Source: Crocosphaera subtropica ATCC 51142 (GTDB lineage Bacteria > Cyanobacteriota > Cyanobacteriia > Cyanobacteriales > Microcystaceae). Taken from it: a stretch of 32,000 nucleotides of DNA. The notes beneath the pieces are model-generated. The model did not search any database, was not told the DNA's origin, and saw only the letters and a program-made list of their open reading frames with translations. The stretch covers positions 1,590,001 to 1,622,000 of the forward strand of contig NC_010546.1 of NCBI RefSeq assembly GCF_000017845.1, given 5' to 3'. Made by a program: the position numbers and the translations under genes. Below are positions 7,778 through 18,107 of this stretch, in pieces. Numbering within the stretch: the first letter of the stretch is position 1; every line of letters begins with the position of its first letter.

Positions 7778-8043
7778 TTATGGCTGGCTTTCTCTAGTTT
7801 ATCAAGTTTAGCAGAATCAACCCTTAAAAAATGCTTATTTTGAACCAATTATTAGCTTAAAATCTTTTATTTTTATTAATTTTTTTATGATGGCAACAAG
7901 TTCATGCTAGAAACTAACCTTTATCAATGACAGGTTAAGATCAATTATATTATAATTTCTTGTAATCAGTTTAATTATAGCTGTCTAACCCACTCTCAAA
8001 CTGGATATAATTACAAGAAAACGTTAGTCAAATACTGATCATT

Positions 8044-8625
8044 ATGTTAGAAACTAAACCTAAGTTCAAAAGCTTTGAGGACTATTTAGCTTACGAAGAT
8101 GATAATAATAAATGGTATGAATTATTTAATGGAGAATTAATTGAGATGCCTCCAGAATCAGGAATTAATGTACAAATTGGAATCTTTTTAATTCTTCAGT
8201 TTTCTCGATTTATTGATTATCGTCAGATTCGAGGTCAAGGATTAGAATTAGAAGTGAGAGGGGAACCAAGAAACCGTTATCCTGACCTTACCATAATTCG
8301 AGAAGAACATATCAATTTATTAGCAAAACGTAACACGATTTGTTTGTTTATGCCTCCTCCTTTATTAGTAGTAGAAATTGTCAGTCCTGGGGAGTTACAA
8401 AAACATAGAGATTATATTGCAAAACGGATACAATATCAAGATTGTGGCATCCCTGAATATTGGATTATTGACCCTGAAAACCAAACTATATTAGTTTTAG
8501 AGTTGAAGGACAAGACTTATGTTGAACTAGGGGAATTTTCAGAAAATAGTAAAATTAAATCCCCTCAATTTTCTCAATTAGATTTGTTTGTATCACAGCT
8601 TTTTCAAAATTTGATAGGTGATTAA
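8044..8625 (+). CDS. Uma2-family (DUF820) PD-(D/E)xK putative endonuclease
   Basis: 193-aa ORF with Uma2 hallmarks: YELFNGELIEMPPES, YPDLTII (Asp), VVEIVSPGE (Glu), and K..YQDCGIPEYWIIDP. Confidence 0.85.
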   Translation: MLETKPKFKSFEDYLAYEDDNNKWYELFNGELIEMPPESGINVQIGIFLILQFSRFIDYRQIRGQGLELEVRGEPRNRYPDLTIIREEHINLLAKRNTICLFMPPPLLVVEIVSPGELQKHRDYIAKRIQYQDCGIPEYWIIDPENQTILVLELKDKTYVELGEFSENSKIKSPQFSQLDLFVSQLFQNLIGD

Positions 8626-8685
8626 TATTATTAATCCAATTCGATTATCTATTTCTTTTAAGTTCAGTTGATAAAAGGTTCAATT

Positions 8686-8979
8686 ATGAAGCTTAAACAA
8701 TTATTATTCAAAAAACGAAAGGAAATTCTTAGGATTGCAGCCAAACATGGGGCGTATAATATTCGGATTTTTGGTTCTGTTGCGAGGGGAGAAGATAACG
8801 AAAATAGCGATATTGATTTTTTAATTGATTATGATTTATCTAAAACAAGTTCTTGGTTTCCGATGGGTTTAATTGTAGAGTTAGAGACTTTATTAAAGCA
8901 TAAAGTTGATATAGCAACGGATGATTCTTTACATGAGTTTATCCGTGATAAAATACTTGAAGAGGCAATTAAATTATGA
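8686..8979 (+). CDS. mntA: MNT-type nucleotidyltransferase antitoxin (HepT/MNT toxin-antitoxin system)
   Basis: Minimal nucleotidyltransferase motif GSVARGEDNENSDIDFLI. The ATG at 8686 is preferred over the TTG at 8668 used by the ORF track. The stop overlaps the start of the downstream DUF86 gene (ATGA). Confidence 0.85.
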   Translation: MKLKQLLFKKRKEILRIAAKHGAYNIRIFGSVARGEDNENSDIDFLIDYDLSKTSSWFPMGLIVELETLLKHKVDIATDDSLHEFIRDKILEEAIKL

Positions 8980-9317
8980 AAGACTCTCGTATTTATTTAA
9001 TTCATATTCGAGATTGTCTAGCTAGAATTAAAGATTATACTGCTGAAGGAAAGCAGGTATTTTTTGAGGATTTGAAAACCCAAGATGCTGTTATTAGAAA
9101 TCTTGAGATAATGAGTGAATCTGTGAATAAGTTACCGTCTCAATGGACGGAAGCTTATCCAAATATGAAATGGGAGGAAATTAGAGGTTTACGTAATCGT
9201 TTAGCTCACGAATATCTCAATGTTAATCTTAAGATAATTTGGGATATTATTGAAAATGATTTACCAGACTTTGAGGTAACTATAGAAGCGATCGCACAAC
9301 AATTTTGGAATAGTTAA
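8976..9317 (+). CDS. hepT: HepT (DUF86, HEPN-fold) ribonuclease toxin
   Basis: 113-aa ORF with the Rx4HxY HEPN motif (RNRLAHEY). There is a 4-bp ATGA overlap with the upstream MNT gene. Confidence 0.85.
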   Translation: MKDSRIYLIHIRDCLARIKDYTAEGKQVFFEDLKTQDAVIRNLEIMSESVNKLPSQWTEAYPNMKWEEIRGLRNRLAHEYLNVNLKIIWDIIENDLPDFEVTIEAIAQQFWNS

Positions 9318-9525: not shown

Positions 9526-10263
9526 TTATTCTTGTTCTCTCCTTAAATCAATAGAGGTTTTATAGTTTAAATATTCCTCATGATACTCTCTATCTTCTAA
9601 AAGTTCATCGACTCCCTCTAAATCCAGATTTTTAAGTAAATCTCTAGTCATTCTTATTCCTTTCTTTGTTAATTTAACATAAGTCGTTTTTTTACGATTA
9701 TTATCTTGTCTTTGTGGTTGTTCAAGTAATCCTTCTTCTTGCAGTTTATCTAAGATAGAAAACTTTAAATCTATCCAACTTTTAACTCCTATGAAATTTT
9801 CTTTACATTTCATTTTTTCAGATTCCTCGAAATGTTTACAATCAAGATACTCATCCCAACCTGATAGATACAAAAAAATCATATAAATTTGTCTAAAGAC
9901 TTTATATTCTTTTAATTCTAATAATTCTTTTTCTTGTTGATCATAATATTGATCAATTTTACTCACTATTTTATCTCTTGCTTGATAAAATTGCTCTGAA
10001 TAATCACTAATAAATGATGGCTTATCATCATCGATTAAAGTTCCTTTTGCTAAATATTTTTGACTTAAGTTTGTTAAGATTTTTGATTCAGGAAGTTGGA
10101 AAACTTTGATACTCCAATTATCTCTTATTTCTGTATCTTCTTTGATTAACTTTTTCTTCTTCATTAATTTTTGTTCTTCATTTTCTTGTTCTTGGTATTT
10201 TCTTTTTTGTTCTTCCTGTTCTTGAATTTGTTTTTGTTCATAATAATCATCAGGTATATTCAA
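9526..10263 (-). CDS. hypothetical E/K-rich protein with a DUF6429-like C-terminal domain. The track ORF starts at a TTG; the gene probably begins at 10418 and is interrupted by a 1-nt frameshift in an A7 run (T7 at 10309-10315 on plus).
   Basis: 245-aa ORF. The C-terminal segment IYMIFLYLSGWDEY...KSWIDLKFSILDKLQEEGLLEQ...YVKLTKKGIRMTRDLLKNL resembles DUF6429 as I recall it. An upstream ATG ORF (MDAKKNFEIYTNSSATFTNAMKNCGEDFIKYLKKEK...) joins the downstream frame if one A is added. Confidence 0.6.
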   Translation of the reverse strand: MNIPDDYYEQKQIQEQEEQKRKYQEQENEEQKLMKKKKLIKEDTEIRDNWSIKVFQLPESKILTNLSQKYLAKGTLIDDDKPSFISDYSEQFYQARDKIVSKIDQYYDQQEKELLELKEYKVFRQIYMIFLYLSGWDEYLDCKHFEESEKMKCKENFIGVKSWIDLKFSILDKLQEEGLLEQPQRQDNNRKKTTYVKLTKKGIRMTRDLLKNLDLEGVDELLEDREYHEEYLNYKTSIDLRREQE

Positions 10264-10610: not shown

Positions 10611-13583
10611 TTGGTAGTACAATTAGATTCTAAAACCTACGAACAACGAACCCAGGAAATAGCAAAGGAATTAATCGCCCAAACCCGTGAAAAACGCTCA
10701 TTATGGTCGAAAATAGGCGATCAGATGCGTTGGGATGATAAATTGTTAGATTTTGCGATGAGTAACCCTGGTTTACGGGTGCAATTATTCCATTTTATTG
10801 ATACGTTACCCGCGCTACAAAGTAATGCAGAAATCGCTAATCATCTGCAACAATACTTAGGGGACGAGTCCGTAGAATTACCGGGCGCATTAAAGGGTAT
10901 TCTTAACTTTACCGATTATAACTCTCTTCCTGCTAAAGTAGCCGCCGAAACCATCAGTAAAGCGGTGCAAACCTTAGCATTTAAGTATATTTCCGGTGAA
11001 ACAATACCTCAAGTCATTAAAACCGTCGAAAGACTTCGGAAAGAGAAAATGGGTTTTACCATTGACTTATTAGGGGAAGCAGTTATTACTGAAAGTGAGG
11101 CGAAAGCTTATCTCGATAGTTACCTCGACTTGATGGAAAAATTAGCCGATCAGTCGAAAAAATGGTCAAATATAGCACAAATAGACCAAGCAGGAGACAA
11201 AAGCTTATCTAAGGTTCAAGTTTCCGTTAAATTAACCGCTTTTTATTCCCAGTTTGATCCCATTGATCCCCAAGGAAGTAAAGAAAAAGTCTGCGATCGC
11301 ATTCGTATCCTTCTCCGTCGGGCCCAAGCGTTAGGGGTTGCCATCCATTTCGATATGGAACAATATGTTTACAAGGATCTCACCCTATCTATCCTCAAGG
11401 AATTATTGTTAGAAGAAGAGTTTCGCAACCGTAGCGATATTGGTGTTACATTACAAGCCTATCTTAGAGACTCAAAACAAGACTTACAGGATCTCATTGC
11501 ATGGGCCAAACAACGAGAGACTCCCATTACCATCAGATTAGTCAAAGGGGCATATTGGGATCAAGAAACCATTAAATCTGAACAAAATCATTGGCCACAA
11601 CCGGTATATAACCAAAAAGCAGCCACCGATGTTAATTACGAAGCGATGACCCAGTTATTGCTGGAAAATCATCAATATTTATATGCTGCCATCGGTTCCC
11701 ATAACGTGCGATCGCAAGCAAGGGCGATCGCCATCGCTGAAACCTTAAACGTCCCCTCTCGCGCCTTCGAGATGCAGGTATTATATGGCATGGGGGATCA
11801 GTTAGCCAAAGCGTTAGTGAAAACAGGGCATCGTGTGCGAGTTTATGCGCCCTACGGTAACTTATTACCAGGGATGGCCTACTTAATTCGTCGTTTATTG
11901 GAAAATACCGCTAATAGTTCTTTCTTACGGCAAAATTTAGAAGAAAGACCCATCGAAGAATTAATCGCACCCCCAACGGTTTCAGGAACAATGGAACGCA
12001 CAGCACAAAAAGAAGGTTTTGTCAATGCCCCTGACACGGATTATTCTAGGGAAGTATTACGGGAAAAAGCACAGCAAGCTTTAGTAAAAGTTAAAGATAG
12101 TCTCGGTAAGACCTATCTACCCTTAATTAACGGGGAATATGTACAAACTGATGTGATTATCGACTCTCTTAACCCGTCCAAATCTTCGGAAGTGGTGGGA
12201 CAAATTGGCTTAATTTCCATTGAACAGGCAGAACAAGCGTTAAACGCAGCCAAAGAAGCCTTTAAAGACTGGAAGAAAACCCCTGCGACAGAAAGAGCGA
12301 GAATACTCCGTAAAGCTGGCGATTTGATGGAAGAACGCCGTCATGAACTTTCCGCTTGGATCTGTGTCGAAGTGGGTAAAATATTACAACAAGCAGACGC
12401 AGAAGTATCCGAAGCGATCGACTTTTGCCGTTATTATGCCGATGAAATGGAACGGTTAGACAAAGGTTATAACTACGATGTCGCAGGGGAAACCAACCGT
12501 TATCATTATCAACCCAGAGGTATCGCTTTAGTTATTTCTCCGTGGAACTTTCCTTTTGCCATTGCCACAGGAATGACGGTTGCTGCGTTAGTGACAGGAA
12601 ACTGTACTTTATTGAAGCCAGCCGAAACCTCCACCGTGATCGCTGCGAAAATTGCCGAAATATTAGTGGATGCGGGTATTCCTAAAGGGGTGTTTCAACT
12701 GGTTCCCGGAAAAGGGTCGAAAGTTGGGGCTTATATGGTCAACCATCCTGACGTACATCTGATCGCCTTTACTGGGTCGAGAGAAGTCGGATGTCGTATC
12801 TATGCCGATGCTGCTATCTTGCAACCCGGACAAAAACACCTGAAGCGGGTTATTGCAGAGATGGGGGGCAAAAACGCTATTATTGTCGATGAAAGTGCTG
12901 ACCTCGATCAAGCGGTTGCAGGGGCTGTCTTTTCCGCCTTTGGATACACGGGTCAAAAATGTTCGGCAGCCTCCCGTATCATCGTTTTAGACCCCGTTTA
13001 CGACGCTTTCTTAGAACGGTTCGTAGATGCTACCAAGTCCCTCAATGTAGGGCCAACGGATGAACCCTCTACCCAAGTGGGGCCTGTCATCGACGCAACG
13101 GCACAAAAACGCATTCTAGAGTACATTGAAACCGCAAAACAAGAATCAACCCTCGCCTTAGCAATGGAAGCCCCTGACAACGGTTTTTATGTGGGTCCCA
13201 CCATCTTCGGGGATGTGTTACCTAACCATACCATCGCCCAAGAAGAGATATTTGGCCCAGTGGTTGCTGTCATGCGCGTCAAAAACTTTGATGAAGCGTT
13301 AGAAGTTGCCAATGGAACCGACTACGCCTTAACCGGTGGGTTATATTCTCGGAGTCCCGAACATATCGAACAGGCCCAGAAAGAATTTGAAGTCGGGAAC
13401 TTGTACATTAATCGGACGATAACAGGGGCGATCGTTGCCCGTCAACCCTTTGGTGGGTTCAAGTTGTCTGGTGTGGGTTCCAAAGCAGGAGGACCTGACT
13501 ATCTATTACAGTTCCTCGAACCTCGTCATATTAGCGAAAACATTCAGCGTCAAGGGTTTGCACCCATAGAAGGGGCCGAGTAA
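10611..13583 (+). CDS. putA: bifunctional proline dehydrogenase / L-glutamate-gamma-semialdehyde (P5C) dehydrogenase
   Basis: 990-aa ORF with a TTG start. The N-terminal PRODH barrel has HFDMEQY, RLVKGAYWD and IRRLLENTANSSF. The C-terminal aldehyde dehydrogenase domain has EMGGKNAIIVD and the catalytic Cys in GQKCSAASR. No N-terminal RHH DNA-binding domain. Confidence 0.95.
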   Translation: MVVQLDSKTYEQRTQEIAKELIAQTREKRSLWSKIGDQMRWDDKLLDFAMSNPGLRVQLFHFIDTLPALQSNAEIANHLQQYLGDESVELPGALKGILNFTDYNSLPAKVAAETISKAVQTLAFKYISGETIPQVIKTVERLRKEKMGFTIDLLGEAVITESEAKAYLDSYLDLMEKLADQSKKWSNIAQIDQAGDKSLSKVQVSVKLTAFYSQFDPIDPQGSKEKVCDRIRILLRRAQALGVAIHFDMEQYVYKDLTLSILKELLLEEEFRNRSDIGVTLQAYLRDSKQDLQDLIAWAKQRETPITIRLVKGAYWDQETIKSEQNHWPQPVYNQKAATDVNYEAMTQLLLENHQYLYAAIGSHNVRSQARAIAIAETLNVPSRAFEMQVLYGMGDQLAKALVKTGHRVRVYAPYGNLLPGMAYLIRRLLENTANSSFLRQNLEERPIEELIAPPTVSGTMERTAQKEGFVNAPDTDYSREVLREKAQQALVKVKDSLGKTYLPLINGEYVQTDVIIDSLNPSKSSEVVGQIGLISIEQAEQALNAAKEAFKDWKKTPATERARILRKAGDLMEERRHELSAWICVEVGKILQQADAEVSEAIDFCRYYADEMERLDKGYNYDVAGETNRYHYQPRGIALVISPWNFPFAIATGMTVAALVTGNCTLLKPAETSTVIAAKIAEILVDAGIPKGVFQLVPGKGSKVGAYMVNHPDVHLIAFTGSREVGCRIYADAAILQPGQKHLKRVIAEMGGKNAIIVDESADLDQAVAGAVFSAFGYTGQKCSAASRIIVLDPVYDAFLERFVDATKSLNVGPTDEPSTQVGPVIDATAQKRILEYIETAKQESTLALAMEAPDNGFYVGPTIFGDVLPNHTIAQEEIFGPVVAVMRVKNFDEALEVANGTDYALTGGLYSRSPEHIEQAQKEFEVGNLYINRTITGAIVARQPFGGFKLSGVGSKAGGPDYLLQFLEPRHISENIQRQGFAPIEGAE

Positions 13584-13587
13584 CTTG

Positions 13588-13625
13588 TAGGGTGGGCATT
13601 GCCCACCTTACCTATTTTCTTTTTT
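13588..13625 (+). terminator. rho-independent terminator of putA
   Basis: tagGGTGGGC-att-GCCCACCtta gives a 7-bp GC-rich perfect stem, extendable to 10 bp with one G-U pair. It is followed by CCTATTTTCTTTTTT and starts 5 nt after the putA stop. Confidence 0.7.
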
Positions 13626-13628
13626 AAT

Positions 13629-13928
13629 ATGATTACTTATATCGCAACGATTCACAAAGATAAGGATAGTGATTATGGTGTACAATTTTATGACTTTCCT
13701 GGTTGTATTAGTGCCGGAGAGAGTATTGAAGAAGCAAAAATGATGGCAAAAGAAGCTTTAATAGGTCATATTAATTTAATGGTAACTGATGGTGATGTTA
13801 TTCCTACACCTAGCACTCTCGAAAGTATTTTAAAAGATAAAGATTATCAAGATGCTGTTGCTTTTACAACTGTTGAGATATCAGAGGCAATTTTAACTAA
13901 TGAAAATCTATATGTAAAAAATATGTAA
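13629..13928 (+). CDS. HicB-like antitoxin-fold protein (N-terminal HicB domain only; no HicA partner and no DNA-binding domain)
   Basis: MITYIATIHKDKDSDYGVQFYDFPGCISAGESIEEAKMMAKEALIGHI... is the typical HicB/UPF0150 N-terminal pattern. The ATG at 13629 is preferred because the track TTG start at 13599 lies inside the putA terminator hairpin. Confidence 0.7.
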   Translation: MITYIATIHKDKDSDYGVQFYDFPGCISAGESIEEAKMMAKEALIGHINLMVTDGDVIPTPSTLESILKDKDYQDAVAFTTVEISEAILTNENLYVKNM

Positions 13929-14026
13929 AAAGCGAGAATTACTTTATTTAATTATAGAATTATAATCAAATTTTATACTAAAGTAATTATGATGATAAAA
14001 TTAAAATCAGCACATATTCAAAACTT

Positions 14027-15517
14027 TTAAAGTTTTTTAACAGTTTCAGCTATTAAATAATTTATGGGAGAGACATTTCCAAAATAACTAAGAATTGAAT
14101 TTCTCTGACTTTTAGGAAGACATCTAGAACCAACAGCAGAAGACCAAGATAACCAGTCTGCTTTACCTTCTTTGAGATGATCATATCTTAAATCAGGCAT
14201 CCCAAAACGATTTTCAGGTATTTCTAAAATCTTACTTTTAGAAATTTTTGAAGAATTTTTGTGTTCATAAATTTTGATAAGTAAGTAAGAATATTTCCCT
14301 GTTGTTGGTAAGTAATCTTCTACAATTTTCGTTATCCAAAATAGTTGCTCTTCAGTTACGATTTCAGCTTCATCAAGAAACTCACTAATTATCTCTAATA
14401 AATCTGACTTATTCTCGACAAAAGTAGAATAATAATAAATTTTTTTAATTAAATTAGGAAATTTGTAGAGAAAAATTTTAATATTCTCAAGTACATCTTT
14501 TACATTTTCTTTCATAAAAGTAAGGATTAAGTCTGCATCTGCTTCTTCTAATTCAGGATTATTAAGCAGATGGTAAAGATACTCTTCTTGTTCATTACTC
14601 AAGGTTAAATCATGTGATTCTTCTTCACTTTCATAGTAGTCTGAAATCATTTCTGTTCTCATTCTGAGCAATTGTTTTCTGACTTCTTCTATTTTGCCAC
14701 TTACTTCTATGATACCAAGATCACCATATTTAGTTTTTGAGCTATTTATATTAAGACCTTGTTCTCCAGCCCTTTGTTGAATCCATAAAAAATCATGATT
14801 GATTACTCGATTTTTATTAGCGAAAATATATATATCATCCATAAATCTTAATAAAAGATCGCACTTCAATTGCATTGAATTATCAATAAATTTTAAAAAT
14901 TCAGAACCGATTACTTTACATGGATGTATCCCTTTAGGAAGACAGTCAACACTTCTTCCTGAATTAATTTGTCTTAAAAACTTCCCTAAATGTTCTGGAT
15001 CTTTTGATCCTTGTTGTTCTTGTAAAATTCGTTTAAACCATTGAACTAGATCGTGATGATATATACTATTAAAATATGCAGAAATATCAAGTTTTAGACA
15101 ATATTTATAATCGTGATTAGCTTCAGTTACCGATTTCTTAAATTCTCTATAAGCTAGGGCAAGAGAAACAGGTTTACCTTGTTTAAAGGTATGACCAAAA
15201 CTTCTTCTATTTTCATTAAAATCTTTTCTAAAATACTTTCTATTCCGATAGACTAAATCATAGATAAAAAATTCAGCTACTGGGTCAAGTTTGAATGTAC
15301 TTCTTAAGTGCATATCATGTTTAGCACTGTAGCAACGAATTTGTGGAAGAAAATTATATTCTTGTGCGTCATCATTTTTTAATAATTTTTCGTAGATATA
15401 TTTATATAATTCTTCTCCAGAATTTTTAATTACTATTTCGTTAGTTGATAAAGGAAAAAAACTTTTGTGATAATCACTAGAAAAGTAGTCAATAGTATTT
15501 TGAATATTAAGCATCAT
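14027..15517 (-). CDS. stand-alone reverse transcriptase (RNA-directed DNA polymerase), UG/Abi (defence-associated, DRT-like) type with a C-terminal helical extension
   Basis: 496-aa ORF with RT motifs in canonical order: SAKHDMHLRSTFKLDPVAEFFIYDLV (fingers), LKLDISAYFNSI (motif A, Asp144 at nt 15086-15088), LPKGIHPCKVIGSEFL (motif B), LLRFMDDIYIF (motif C, Asp227/228 at nt 14834-14839) and GLNINSSKTKYG (motif D). Residues ~275-496 are Glu/Leu/Ile/Lys-rich and helical-looking, with no recognisable catalytic motif. Confidence 0.8.
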   Translation of the reverse strand: MMLNIQNTIDYFSSDYHKSFFPLSTNEIVIKNSGEELYKYIYEKLLKNDDAQEYNFLPQIRCYSAKHDMHLRSTFKLDPVAEFFIYDLVYRNRKYFRKDFNENRRSFGHTFKQGKPVSLALAYREFKKSVTEANHDYKYCLKLDISAYFNSIYHHDLVQWFKRILQEQQGSKDPEHLGKFLRQINSGRSVDCLPKGIHPCKVIGSEFLKFIDNSMQLKCDLLLRFMDDIYIFANKNRVINHDFLWIQQRAGEQGLNINSSKTKYGDLGIIEVSGKIEEVRKQLLRMRTEMISDYYESEEESHDLTLSNEQEEYLYHLLNNPELEEADADLILTFMKENVKDVLENIKIFLYKFPNLIKKIYYYSTFVENKSDLLEIISEFLDEAEIVTEEQLFWITKIVEDYLPTTGKYSYLLIKIYEHKNSSKISKSKILEIPENRFGMPDLRYDHLKEGKADWLSWSSAVGSRCLPKSQRNSILSYFGNVSPINYLIAETVKKL

Positions 15518-15536
15518 TTATTCAACATTCCCAATC

Positions 15537-16037
15537 TTAACTCCGTATTTGTTTCGTTAAATGTATCAATTCGGGTAGAATTAATTTATCTAAAGCTAAC
15601 TTAACCGCATTCGATGATCCCGGCAAAGAAAAGATCAAAATATTTTCATAAACCCCTGCGATCGCCCGTGAGGCCATGGCCCGTGAACCGATTTTTTGAT
15701 AACTTAAATACCGAAACAACTCCCCAAACCCCGGCAAAGTCTTCTCTAATAACCCCTCTAATGCGTCGTAGGTGGTGTCTCTAGGGGCGATTCCCGTGCC
15801 TCCATTGAGGATTATGACATCTATCTTATTCTCTTGTTTTAACTGCTGTATATGGGCGATGATGCTGTGGGGTTCATCCTTGAGGATGTCGTAATTAATG
15901 ATTTGATGGCCCGCATCTGTCAAACGTTGGTTAAGAAGTTGCCCACTGCGATCGCTTTCGGGGGTACGAGTATCACTTACCGTAACAATAGCACAGGCAA
16001 GACTGAGGAATTGGCGATCGGGGTGCGGAAGGGACAT
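15537..16037 (-). CDS. moaB: molybdenum cofactor biosynthesis protein B (MoaB/MogA family)
   Basis: 166-aa ORF with the motifs TVSDTR, LNGGTGIAPRDTT and SLPGSSNAVK. Confidence 0.9.
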   Translation of the reverse strand: MSLPHPDRQFLSLACAIVTVSDTRTPESDRSGQLLNQRLTDAGHQIINYDILKDEPHSIIAHIQQLKQENKIDVIILNGGTGIAPRDTTYDALEGLLEKTLPGFGELFRYLSYQKIGSRAMASRAIAGVYENILIFSLPGSSNAVKLALDKLILPELIHLTKQIRS

Positions 16038-16118: not shown

Positions 16119-16155
<37 letters not shown>

Positions 16156-16497: not shown

Positions 16498-16607
16498 GCT
16501 TGTTATCCTTTAATTAAATTTACATGATCCTCAATTTATCATTTCATCAACTCCTTATGATAGAGATCATTGTCTAAGTGCTATCTATTCTGGTCAAATC
16601 ATTGCCT

Positions 16608-18107
16608 ATGACTCTCTTAGAAGCAGAAGTTCATCTTTCCTTACGGGAATTTTTACGGGATCAAGGGGAACCCCTTTGGGATCACCATTTGACCATGGCC
16701 CGTTTAGTGTCTCGCGCTTTACGTTTAAATCGATCTGCTTTGATTCAAACAGGAAGCACTTTTTCTCGTTATGGATTAAGTTATTTAATGCCGTGTTTAT
16801 TAAGCGATCGCCCTATTTTATTGGTGGTTCCTTTAAACATTCAAAAACAATTAATCGAACAAGATATTCCCTATCTTCAGCAATGGTTAAATACAAAGAA
16901 AACCATTATTAATCAAGACCAAACCGTTGATTTTGAAACCTTTCAGGGATTATTGATTGTTTCTCCTGATGTTTGGTTAGGCGATCGCTTGGAAAATAAG
17001 GGTCAGTTTCCTGATGATATTGTTACTTTAATTGACCAAGCTGATTATTTAGAAGAATGGACAAAGGATTATTTAACTATGACCCTTGCTTCTGATGATT
17101 GGCAACAATTACAACAACAATATCCTGCCTATGGTAACTTAATTCAAGAAGTTAGGTTTTTCTTAAAAAAATCAATTTTTAGTCATCCTAATAGTCCCTA
17201 TCAATGCTGTTTACTGGATCAAGAAGAAAAAGAGAGTTTGTCTCATCTTTGTGCAACCCTAAATAAGAATCCTTTATTAAACCGTTTTGCCCAATCTCTT
17301 GATAATCAAAATCAACTTTTATGGGCATCGGTTGATCGAGAAAAAAATACCTTTTTTATTCATGTAAGTCCTTTAGATATTTCTTCTATTTTATCTCCTT
17401 ATTTAAATCATTCTACGATTGTTTTAATGGGGGGATTTCTGGATAGTCAAAAAGCCGCACCCACCTATAAGAAAACGATTGGCTTAGCCCAAGATATTTT
17501 ATGTTTAAAATTTCACCCCCATCGTCAAAATGAATTAATTAATTTATATATTCGTGAGCGTTTACCGATGCCCAATACACCAGAATTCCAAAGGATATTA
17601 ATCGAAGAAGTTAGAAAGCTGGTTTTTGGGGGTTACGAAAGCTTAAAACCGATTACGATTATTGTAGACGATGTTCCTTCTAAGGCACAGGTTGCTACCT
17701 TTTTGGCTGCGGAGTTTGGCTCACAGGTAAAAGTTGAAAAGGCTGATATTGATGATAATAGCATTTTAATTAGTGGCTGGAAATTTTGGCATAATCATCA
17801 AGGAAAATTACCGATTCCAAAACTATTTATTATTGCAACTTTACCTATTCCTTCCCTAGAGAATCCTCTAGTTGCTGCTCAAGTTAATTATTATAAAAAA
17901 CAACATAAAGATTGGTTTAGATTTTATCTTTTACCCACTGCTTTAAAGGAAATTCAAAGAGCAGTGATGCCTTTACGGGAGTCTCAAGGAATTGTTGCTT
18001 TATTAGACAATCGGGTTAATTATCGTAGTTATGGTAATCGAATTTTAACTGCGTTAGAACCCTATGCTAAGATTGATTATATTGATAGCAATTGGTTAAA
18101 CGGTTAA
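16608..18107 (+). CDS. DinG/Rad3-like helicase-family protein with degenerate ATPase motifs
   Basis: The ATG at 16608 is preferred over the GTG at 16578. WDHHLTMARLVSRALRL..SALIQTG and the C-terminal QGIVALLDNRVNYRSYGNRILTALEP resemble DinG motifs I and VI. The Walker A site reads TGSTFSRYG (no GKT) and Walker B reads LIDQADYL (no DEAH). Confidence 0.6.
   Translation: MTLLEAEVHLSLREFLRDQGEPLWDHHLTMARLVSRALRLNRSALIQTGSTFSRYGLSYLMPCLLSDRPILLVVPLNIQKQLIEQDIPYLQQWLNTKKTIINQDQTVDFETFQGLLIVSPDVWLGDRLENKGQFPDDIVTLIDQADYLEEWTKDYLTMTLASDDWQQLQQQYPAYGNLIQEVRFFLKKSIFSHPNSPYQCCLLDQEEKESLSHLCATLNKNPLLNRFAQSLDNQNQLLWASVDREKNTFFIHVSPLDISSILSPYLNHSTIVLMGGFLDSQKAAPTYKKTIGLAQDILCLKFHPHRQNELINLYIRERLPMPNTPEFQRILIEEVRKLVFGGYESLKPITIIVDDVPSKAQVATFLAAEFGSQVKVEKADIDDNSILISGWKFWHNHQGKLPIPKLFIIATLPIPSLENPLVAAQVNYYKKQHKDWFRFYLLPTALKEIQRAVMPLRESQGIVALLDNRVNYRSYGNRILTALEPYAKIDYIDSNWLNG

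Follow-up and report, generated by a model that had tools for sequence, protein, structure and literature searches.

Full-length profile matches assign cce_1597 of Crocosphaera subtropica ATCC 51142 to the Drt5 (UG16) family of anti-phage reverse transcriptases

Results

The drt5 locus and its domain layout

A 32-kb stretch of the genome of Crocosphaera subtropica ATCC 51142, here called the window, contains a minus-strand open reading frame (ORF) of 496 amino acids (aa) plus stop, beginning with ATG. Judged from its profile matches, the encoded protein is almost certainly Drt5 (DRT type 5, UG16), a member of a single-gene family of anti-phage reverse transcriptases (RTs). Its sequence equals that of cce_1597 from the same strain (100% identity), an entry labeled "hypothetical protein" in GenBank and "Reverse transcriptase" in UniRef. 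With 496 codons in 28% GC DNA and full-length homologs in hundreds of genomes, the ORF is real, far beyond what chance would give. Exactly 19 nt separate its ATG from the stop codon of an upstream co-directional moaB-like gene (15537..16037), which matches Pfam MoCF_biosynth at 110 bits.

The motifs of an RT core are found in order along the protein. The fingers motif KHDMHLRSTFKLDP begins at residue 66, LKLDISAYF at residue 141, placing the motif A aspartate at D144, and LPKG of motif B at residue 193. RFMDDIY follows from residue 224, which supplies D227 and D228, and GLNINSSKT from residue 254. In a Pfam scan of the protein the sole domain found is RVT_1, which covers residues 111-264 with 44.7 bits (cutoff 29.6). 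The original prediction, made from the letters alone, had described this ORF as an orphan RT, and the length, the 19-bp upstream gap, the motifs and the residue numbers that it quoted are all correct in the sequence. It had also noted an acidic, Leu/Ile/Lys-rich helical region at the C-terminus; residues 275-495 contain 39 D/E, 28 K/R and 47 L/I in 221 positions, and the region is helical in the structural model described below. The layout of the gene and its immediate surroundings is given in Table 1.

Table 1. Domain layout of drt5 and adjoining features (coordinates in the window)
Feature	Coordinates	Strand	Evidence
drt5 gene, antiviral reverse transcriptase Drt5 (DRT type 5, UG16, Class 1 UG/Abi) as assigned from profiles	14027..15517	-	ORF, NCBIfam and PADLOC profiles, identity to cce_1597
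N-terminal helical extension, residues 1-56, before the fingers; invariant D15, P22, L23	15350..15517	-	AlphaFold2 helices 5-18, 24-32 and 34-45; conservation
RT fingers and palm core, residues 57-267; K66/R72/P79	14717..15349	-	RVT_1, motif positions, invariant columns
Motif A, D144 codon	15086-15088	-	Motif position
Motif B, LPKG, residues 193-196	within 14717..15349	-	Motif position
Motif C, FMDD, D227/D228 codons	14834-14839	-	Motif position
Motif D/E, GLNINSSKT, residues 254-262	within 14717..15349	-	Motif position
Linker between RT and helical domain, residues 268-307, with acidic low-confidence loop (SDYYESEEESHD)	14597..14716	-	Predicted local distance difference test score (pLDDT) <50 at 268-274 and 292-302
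C-terminal alpha-helical repeat (alphaRep) domain, residues 308-496	14030..14596	-	Eleven AlphaFold2 helices at pLDDT 88-97; Class 1 fold matches; conservation
19-nt spacer between moaB-like stop and drt5 start; also right edge of the low-GC island	15518..15536	-	Sequence, GC step, identity step against strain SU3
hicB-like antitoxin gene, convergent with drt5; likely true start ATG at 13629	13599..13928	+	Pfam HicB_lk_antitox, 78 bits
98-nt AT-rich spacer between the convergent hicB-like and drt5 stops	13929..14026	.	Fold z -1.32, no Rfam match

Assignment to Drt5

The assignment is carried by full-length profile matches. NCBIfam NF041750, an equivalog model named "antiviral reverse transcriptase Drt5", gives 665.8 bits (cutoff 550) in an alignment that pairs residues 11-495 with positions 1-484 of its 484. 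The PADLOC Drt5 models match end to end at 653.5 and 647.3 bits (positions 2-493 of 493 for the former). Drt8/UG7 (90.8 bits, residues 11-494) and UG20 (84.9 bits, residues 3-492) come next in PADLOC; these also align at full length, yet with scores about seven times lower than Drt5, and on this profile ranking the nearest UG groups are probably these two. The original prediction held that the protein could not be placed in a numbered UG group and might be a new cyanobacterial variant. Neither suggestion stands, given the full-length Drt5/UG16 match and the confident assignment to an existing DRT type. The profile check that it had proposed (Pfam RVT_1 and PADLOC) confirmed the RT and, by assigning it to Drt5, removed the novelty. 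This is no new kind of defense enzyme, but a member of a known family, described in 2020, in a genome already sequenced.

Relatives of the protein carry the same name. An 87% identical protein from a Crocosphaera metagenome-assembled genome (MAG) has already been named Drt5 by NCBI, as have relatives at 55-59% identity; the full-length ones from Aeromonas, Pseudoalteromonas, Hafnia and Proteus (54-58%) bear that name too. Homologs at 40-42% identity are present on four plasmids, three of them annotated drt5, and a search of 50,697 phage records returned no Drt5 homolog. Drt5 is a small but genuine family. At E <= 1e-10, 905 clusters at 90% identity match the Drt5 protein; at E <= 1e-30, so do 116 representatives at 50% identity, from 1.84 billion. 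Two family representatives, P0177 (989 aa) and P0180 (602 aa), have long N-terminal extensions before the Drt5-like region, and residues 541-970 of P0177 align to residues 56-494 of the query. Both are possible fusion variants of Drt5.

DRT types 1-5 correspond to UG1, UG2, UG3+UG8, UG15 and UG16, respectively, and UG16 falls in Class 1 of the UG/Abi RTs; it stands alone and has several domains, with alphaRep, the hallmark of Class 1, at the C-terminus (Mestre 2022, PMC9226505). Phage defense by UG16 has been shown experimentally, with reported dependence on the RT active site (Gao 2020, as described in Mestre 2022, PMC9226505, and in PMC8632793), and the RT of DRT type 5 is by itself sufficient for defense (Gonzalez-Delgado 2021, FEMS review, PMC8632793). 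The Crocosphaera protein has the same architecture of approximately 490 aa, RT plus alphaRep, with neither noncoding RNA (ncRNA) nor partner gene. Set against other Drt5 proteins, nothing substantive differs; particular to this one are a unicellular diazotrophic cyanobacterial host, a very low GC content and a position 19 nt behind moaB.

Other RT classes were considered and rejected. NCBIfam models for retron, group II intron, Drt3a/b, Drt4 and AbiA RTs stay at 21-34 bits where their cutoffs are 200-450, and no repeats resembling either the template repeat/variable repeat pairs of diversity-generating retroelements (DGRs) or CRISPR arrays occur in the window. These results agree with the earlier arguments against a group II intron, a retron, a DGR or a CRISPR-associated RT. 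A retron RT is disfavored by a retron_St85_RT score of 31.8 bits (cutoff 235), by the 19 nt upstream and by the absence of any Rfam retron RNA or significant inverted repeats, and a group II intron RT/maturase by a TIGR04416 score of 28.7 bits (cutoff 300) with no group II intron match in Rfam. DRT4 (UG15) reaches 24.5 bits with NF041749 (cutoff 450) over the RT core only, and AbiA 21 bits with TIGR04499 (cutoff 250) and 32 bits with the PADLOC model. Class 3 UG/Abi systems (UG1/DRT1 and UG5) combine a large RT of more than about 1000 aa with a nitrilase or phosphohydrolase domain, either fused or linked (PMC9226505); the present protein has 496 aa and neither domain, and no UG1 or UG5 model is among its top 25 PADLOC matches.

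Conservation and selection

Conservation was assessed in an alignment of 40 sequences with 46-88% identity to the query and in a broader one of 89 sequences extending down to 35%. The 40-sequence alignment is conserved throughout its length, with a mean column identity of 58% and 77 invariant columns, all of which are retained in Crocosphaera Drt5, the catalytic Asp residues included. Among the invariant columns are D144, Y148-F149-N150, L193-P194-G196, R224-F225-M226-D227-D228 and K261-T262. The 89-sequence alignment shows the same pattern; K66 and R72 are invariant or nearly so in both, and D144, D227 and D228 are conserved in 100% of the 89 members. Together with the RVT_1 match, this conservation bears out the active-looking RT core of the original prediction. 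The C-terminal domain contributes many of the invariant columns, W455, W458, Y478 and S483 among them, and N486 is likewise a conserved position there. Relative to the 87% identical MAG ortholog, the ratio of nonsynonymous to synonymous divergence (dN/dS) of drt5 is 0.24, indicating purifying selection; the dS values against this ortholog are 0.24 (drt5) and 0.49 (putA).

Predicted fold of the C-terminal domain

A sequence search of the PDB with the single protein returned only a designed coiled coil (E = 0.2). Searching with the family profile gave matches to the RT core only (DRT6, Abi-P2, Cas6-RT-Cas1 and DRT9) and no DRT5 structure. We therefore turned to fold comparison. The AlphaFold2 model built on the family alignment has a pLDDT of 87.2 and a predicted template modeling score (pTM) of 0.87, and its C-terminal part is a stack of 11 helices (residues 308-495, pLDDT 88-97). 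The top Foldseek matches in the PDB, by template modeling score (TM), are Class 1 UG/Abi enzymes, aligned over roughly the full length: DRT4 (9vdo), DRT6 (9wy8) and UG15 (9l9s) at TM 0.58 each, Abi-P2 (7r08) at 0.54, AbiK (7r06 and 7r07) at 0.44-0.50 and AbiA (8oz7) at 0.42-0.46. DRT9, DRT2, group II, DGR and retron RTs rank lower.

Because the best matches are Class 1 enzymes, the predicted helical C-terminal domain is taken to be the alphaRep of that class. The domain had been thought uncharacterised; it corresponds instead to the alphaRep that defines Class 1, and the proposed structure prediction and Foldseek comparison place its helices in the fold of DRT4, DRT6, AbiA, AbiK and Abi-P2. 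The broader suggestion, a UG/Abi (DRT) defense RT with an alpha-helical-repeat C-terminal domain, is well supported by both the Class 1 profile and the fold matches. The linker that precedes this domain ranges from 21 to 41 aa within the Drt5 family and is approximately 31% acidic.

A stand-alone gene

We took 62 loci encoding relatives and used the 50 with a full-length drt5 for neighbor and flank comparisons. Clustering of the flanking ORFs at these 50 loci revealed no neighbor gene common across the family, and when flanks of 400 nt (upstream) and 300 nt (downstream) were compared all versus all, similarity was confined to syntenic close relatives. At the locus of the Crocosphaera MAG, the closest independent ortholog (87% aa and 91% nt identity), similarity starts 5 nt before the start codon and stops 3 nt past the stop codon. 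A scan of the window with Rfam matched no family, and a tRNA search of the window found none. The 98-nt spacer 3' of drt5 folds no better than shuffled sequence (z = -1.32) and is not conserved in the MAG. Drt5 is a stand-alone gene without a conserved partner or flanking ncRNA. The original prediction had stressed the lack of room for an ncRNA as setting this RT apart. The observation itself holds, with 19 nt upstream and unconserved flanks, but it is no mark of novelty, since it is expected of Class 1.

Two neighboring systems were considered as partners and rejected. A SIR2 and HerA pair (PADLOC, 272.7 and 489.2 bits) lies directly upstream of Drt5 in five Rhodobacterales loci (L030, L032, L033, L034 and L038), with all three genes in the same orientation and separated by gaps of 0 to -22 nt (about 2790-5990 in L033). 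This arrangement is either a defense island or a co-transcribed unit; as a general Drt5 partner the pair fails, and in the Rhodobacterales loci it is a known system next door. HicB is absent beside drt5 in the 87% ortholog and has its own HicA in strain SU3. The window and SU3 are the only loci at which a HicB homolog adjoins drt5; the one other copy among the 50 loci is six genes away, in L012.

A low-GC cassette shared with strain SU3

The hicB-like gene and drt5 form a low-GC cassette of approximately 1.9 kb between putA and moaB. GC content is 28.1% for drt5 (17.1% at third codon positions, GC3) and 30.6% for the hicB-like gene, versus 44.9% for moaB (GC3 46.7%) and 44.7% for putA. When the window is compared with the corresponding locus of strain SU3, a block from ~13,690 to ~15,490, covering the hicB-like gene and drt5, is 97-100% identical (the hicB-like gene itself 99-100%), whereas the flanking genes are 85-95% identical. 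Synonymous divergence follows the same division, with a dS of 0.014 for drt5 and 0.46 for putA. Both comparisons indicate a recent exchange of the cassette between the ATCC 51142 and SU3 lineages. A second block of 99% identity to SU3, amid flanks of 85-89%, lies at 16539-16838 and covers the intergenic region from psb28 to a DinG-like gene together with the start of the latter, a pattern suggestive of mosaic recombination between ATCC 51142 and SU3.

SU3 carries an intact 62-aa HicA-like ORF beside hicB (7900..8088 of its locus, minus strand). The window has lost the matching ~220 nt, immediately beyond the putA terminator (13587-13611), and hicB is left an orphan in ATCC 51142. At the MAG locus drt5 likewise abuts the 3' end of putA, with no hicB and a different upstream gene. 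Beyond the genus, the closest relatives of the protein come from marine gammaproteobacteria (57-58% identity), ahead of other cyanobacteria (47-49%), which fits horizontal acquisition. The HIP1 palindrome GCGATCGC occurs at 20 sites in the window versus 0.07 expected. The interval from 11,732 to 15,657, within which the drt5 island lies, contains none of them. This depletion fits a foreign origin but is not significant alone, with approximately one site expected in 1.9 kb.

Other features of the window

At 8044-9317 on the plus strand, an MNT nucleotidyltransferase/HepT toxin-antitoxin pair comes after a gene for a putative Uma2-family endonuclease (PADLOC candidate PDC-S03, 229 bits). The MNT gene matches PDC-S09 at 126 bits, and Uma2, MNT and HepT all have a GC content of about 30-32%. 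A 245-aa ORF at 9526-10263 (minus strand, 26% GC) encodes a Glu/Lys/Gln-rich N-terminus and gives a sub-threshold match to DUF6429 (29.4 bits, cutoff 31.6); its 5' part contains imperfect tandem repeats of 17 nt (10136-10193). In the intergenic region between moaB and psb28, the heptamer TGACTCC forms a perfect tandem repeat of 5.1 copies at 16119-16154. Further along, a 509-aa helicase-like ORF at 16578-18107 on the plus strand matches PADLOC typeIV_DinG at 140.9 bits and Pfam Helicase_C_2, and is syntenic in SU3. It is probably a housekeeping DinG-like gene and not a component of a type IV CRISPR system.

Discussion

Because the best structural matches of Drt5 are the characterized Class 1 enzymes DRT4, DRT6, AbiK, Abi-P2 and AbiA, we infer its mechanism from theirs. 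DRT4 is a hexamer that constitutively synthesizes random, template-free single-stranded DNA (ssDNA), primed at Tyr125 and covalently bound to the protein. This DNA is cleared by host exonucleases until a phage ssDNA-binding protein (ORF55) shields it, and the cell then dies (PMC12783706). DRT6 acts like DRT4, and AbiK (Y44), Abi-P2 (Y61) and AbiA (Y298/Y303) are likewise protein-primed and template-independent, with the priming tyrosine in the fingers loop of AbiK and Abi-P2 and in the RT-alphaRep linker of AbiA (PMC12783706).

Crocosphaera Drt5 shares with DRT4 (UG15) and DRT6 (UG12; structures 9vdo/9vdv, 9l9s and 9wy8) the single-gene layout of RT plus alphaRep, at a TM of about 0.58 over approximately 500 aligned columns. 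As the best structural matches with the same layout, these two are the best available model for its mechanism. The resemblance is one of fold, however, with identities of 13-16% and a Drt6 profile score of 52.9 bits versus 653 for Drt5. When a plasmid collection was searched for a DRT4 gene with the RT core as query, no drt4 match was found. AbiK, Abi-P2 and AbiA share the Class 1 fold with Drt5 at TM 0.42-0.54 and act by abortive infection; AbiA has an additional HEPN domain (Mestre 2022, PMC9226505).

By analogy with these enzymes, Drt5 would assemble as an oligomer in which a hydroxyl residue of the protein itself, most likely a tyrosine, would serve as primer. The site formed by D144, D227 and D228 would then polymerize dNTPs, without an RNA template, into ssDNA held covalently on the protein. 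In uninfected cells the product would be kept harmless, and during infection a phage factor would let the DNA accumulate or alter its state. The outcome would be arrest or death of the infected cell, with protection of the population. We regard this outline of protein-primed, RNA-template-free DNA synthesis, turned into abortive infection by the phage, as reasonably likely on the strength of the analogy, and the Drt5 identity together with a Class 1-like mechanism as probably the best explanation of the data. Three tyrosine positions are candidate priming sites. Y86 is conserved in 100% of Drt5 members. Y123, conserved in 93%, is part of an SYxxFK motif; it precedes the motif A Asp by 21 residues and recalls the palm Tyr125 of DRT4, its possible counterpart. 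A tyrosine in the acidic linker, present in 69 of the 89 members, recalls AbiA.

Several points weigh against this outline. Identity to the structural matches is 12-16% and the TM scores lie at 0.5-0.6. Conservation analysis did not yield a tyrosine that could be assigned as the priming site, and a promoter search at drt5 gave no signal above background. The literature yielded neither biochemistry nor a structure for a true DRT5/UG16 enzyme, and two 2026 reviews call the mechanism of DRT5 not established. A 2026 Nature Structural & Molecular Biology paper (PMC13275509) on DRT1 and "DRT5S/DRT5L" was rejected as a source of DRT5 biochemistry: the enzymes studied there belong to Class 3 (UG5-small and UG5-large), and its supplement labels "DRT5S" as UG5S_WP_166099902.1. 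The protein-primed synthesis reported there is for this reason not transferable to UG16. The names collide, "DRT5S/DRT5L" of that paper being different from DRT type 5, which is UG16. Lastly, other Class 1 enzymes, Drt3b and DRT7, make patterned, protein-templated DNA (2026 review), so that a random ssDNA product of Drt5 is not guaranteed. Drt5 may thus depart from DRT4 in making a defined protein-templated or homopolymeric DNA, in using an unusual priming site or in responding to a different phage trigger. We consider such a departure rather unlikely. If it were true, the AT-rich Crocosphaera Drt5, recently moved between strains, would join a family with a new product chemistry.

Less likely still is that Drt5 is a true RNA-templated RT, making cDNA from its own mRNA, from a phage transcript or from an RNA whose gene lies elsewhere, in the manner of the Class 2 systems DRT2 and DRT9 with their ncRNAs. 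The RT active site is complete, the literature leaves the DRT5 mechanism unsettled, and weaker fold matches do extend to DRT9, DRT2, group II and retron RTs, but the best structural matches and all characterized Class 1 enzymes named in the papers cited here work without an RNA template (PMC12783706; 2026 review), and the protein has the alphaRep architecture of that class. The noncoding DNA on both sides is unconserved across the 50 loci and conservation in the closest ortholog ends with the ORF; there are 19 nt upstream, no Rfam match and an unstructured 3' spacer.

It is highly improbable that drt5 is a decaying or domesticated passenger without a role in defense, expressed by read-through from moaB or paired with the hicB-like gene in the manner of a toxin-antitoxin system: although it follows a co-directional housekeeping gene at 19 nt with no promoter signal above background, shares its low GC and block of near-identity with the hicB-like gene, and sits in a cassette whose loss of hicA points to erosion, its family-invariant residues are all intact at a dN/dS of 0.24, the moaB context is unconserved even in the 87% ortholog, HicB adjoins drt5 in the window and SU3 alone and finds its usual partner HicA in the latter, and single-gene anti-phage activity of the family is described as experimentally shown in PMC9226505 and PMC8632793.

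What interest remains lies in the chemistry of the DRT5 family, not in the Crocosphaera locus; the family already has curated profiles and automatic annotation. Of practical value is the annotation itself. A search of the literature for cce_1597 by that name found no mention, and the "hypothetical protein" should be renamed Drt5. The hicAB-drt5 cassette, near-identical in two strains whose core genes differ at a dS of about 0.46, is a clean, small case of recent defense-gene exchange at a fixed chromosomal site, and Crocosphaera subtropica (Cyanothece 51142), as a laboratory model, offers a native cyanobacterial host for a DRT5 system.

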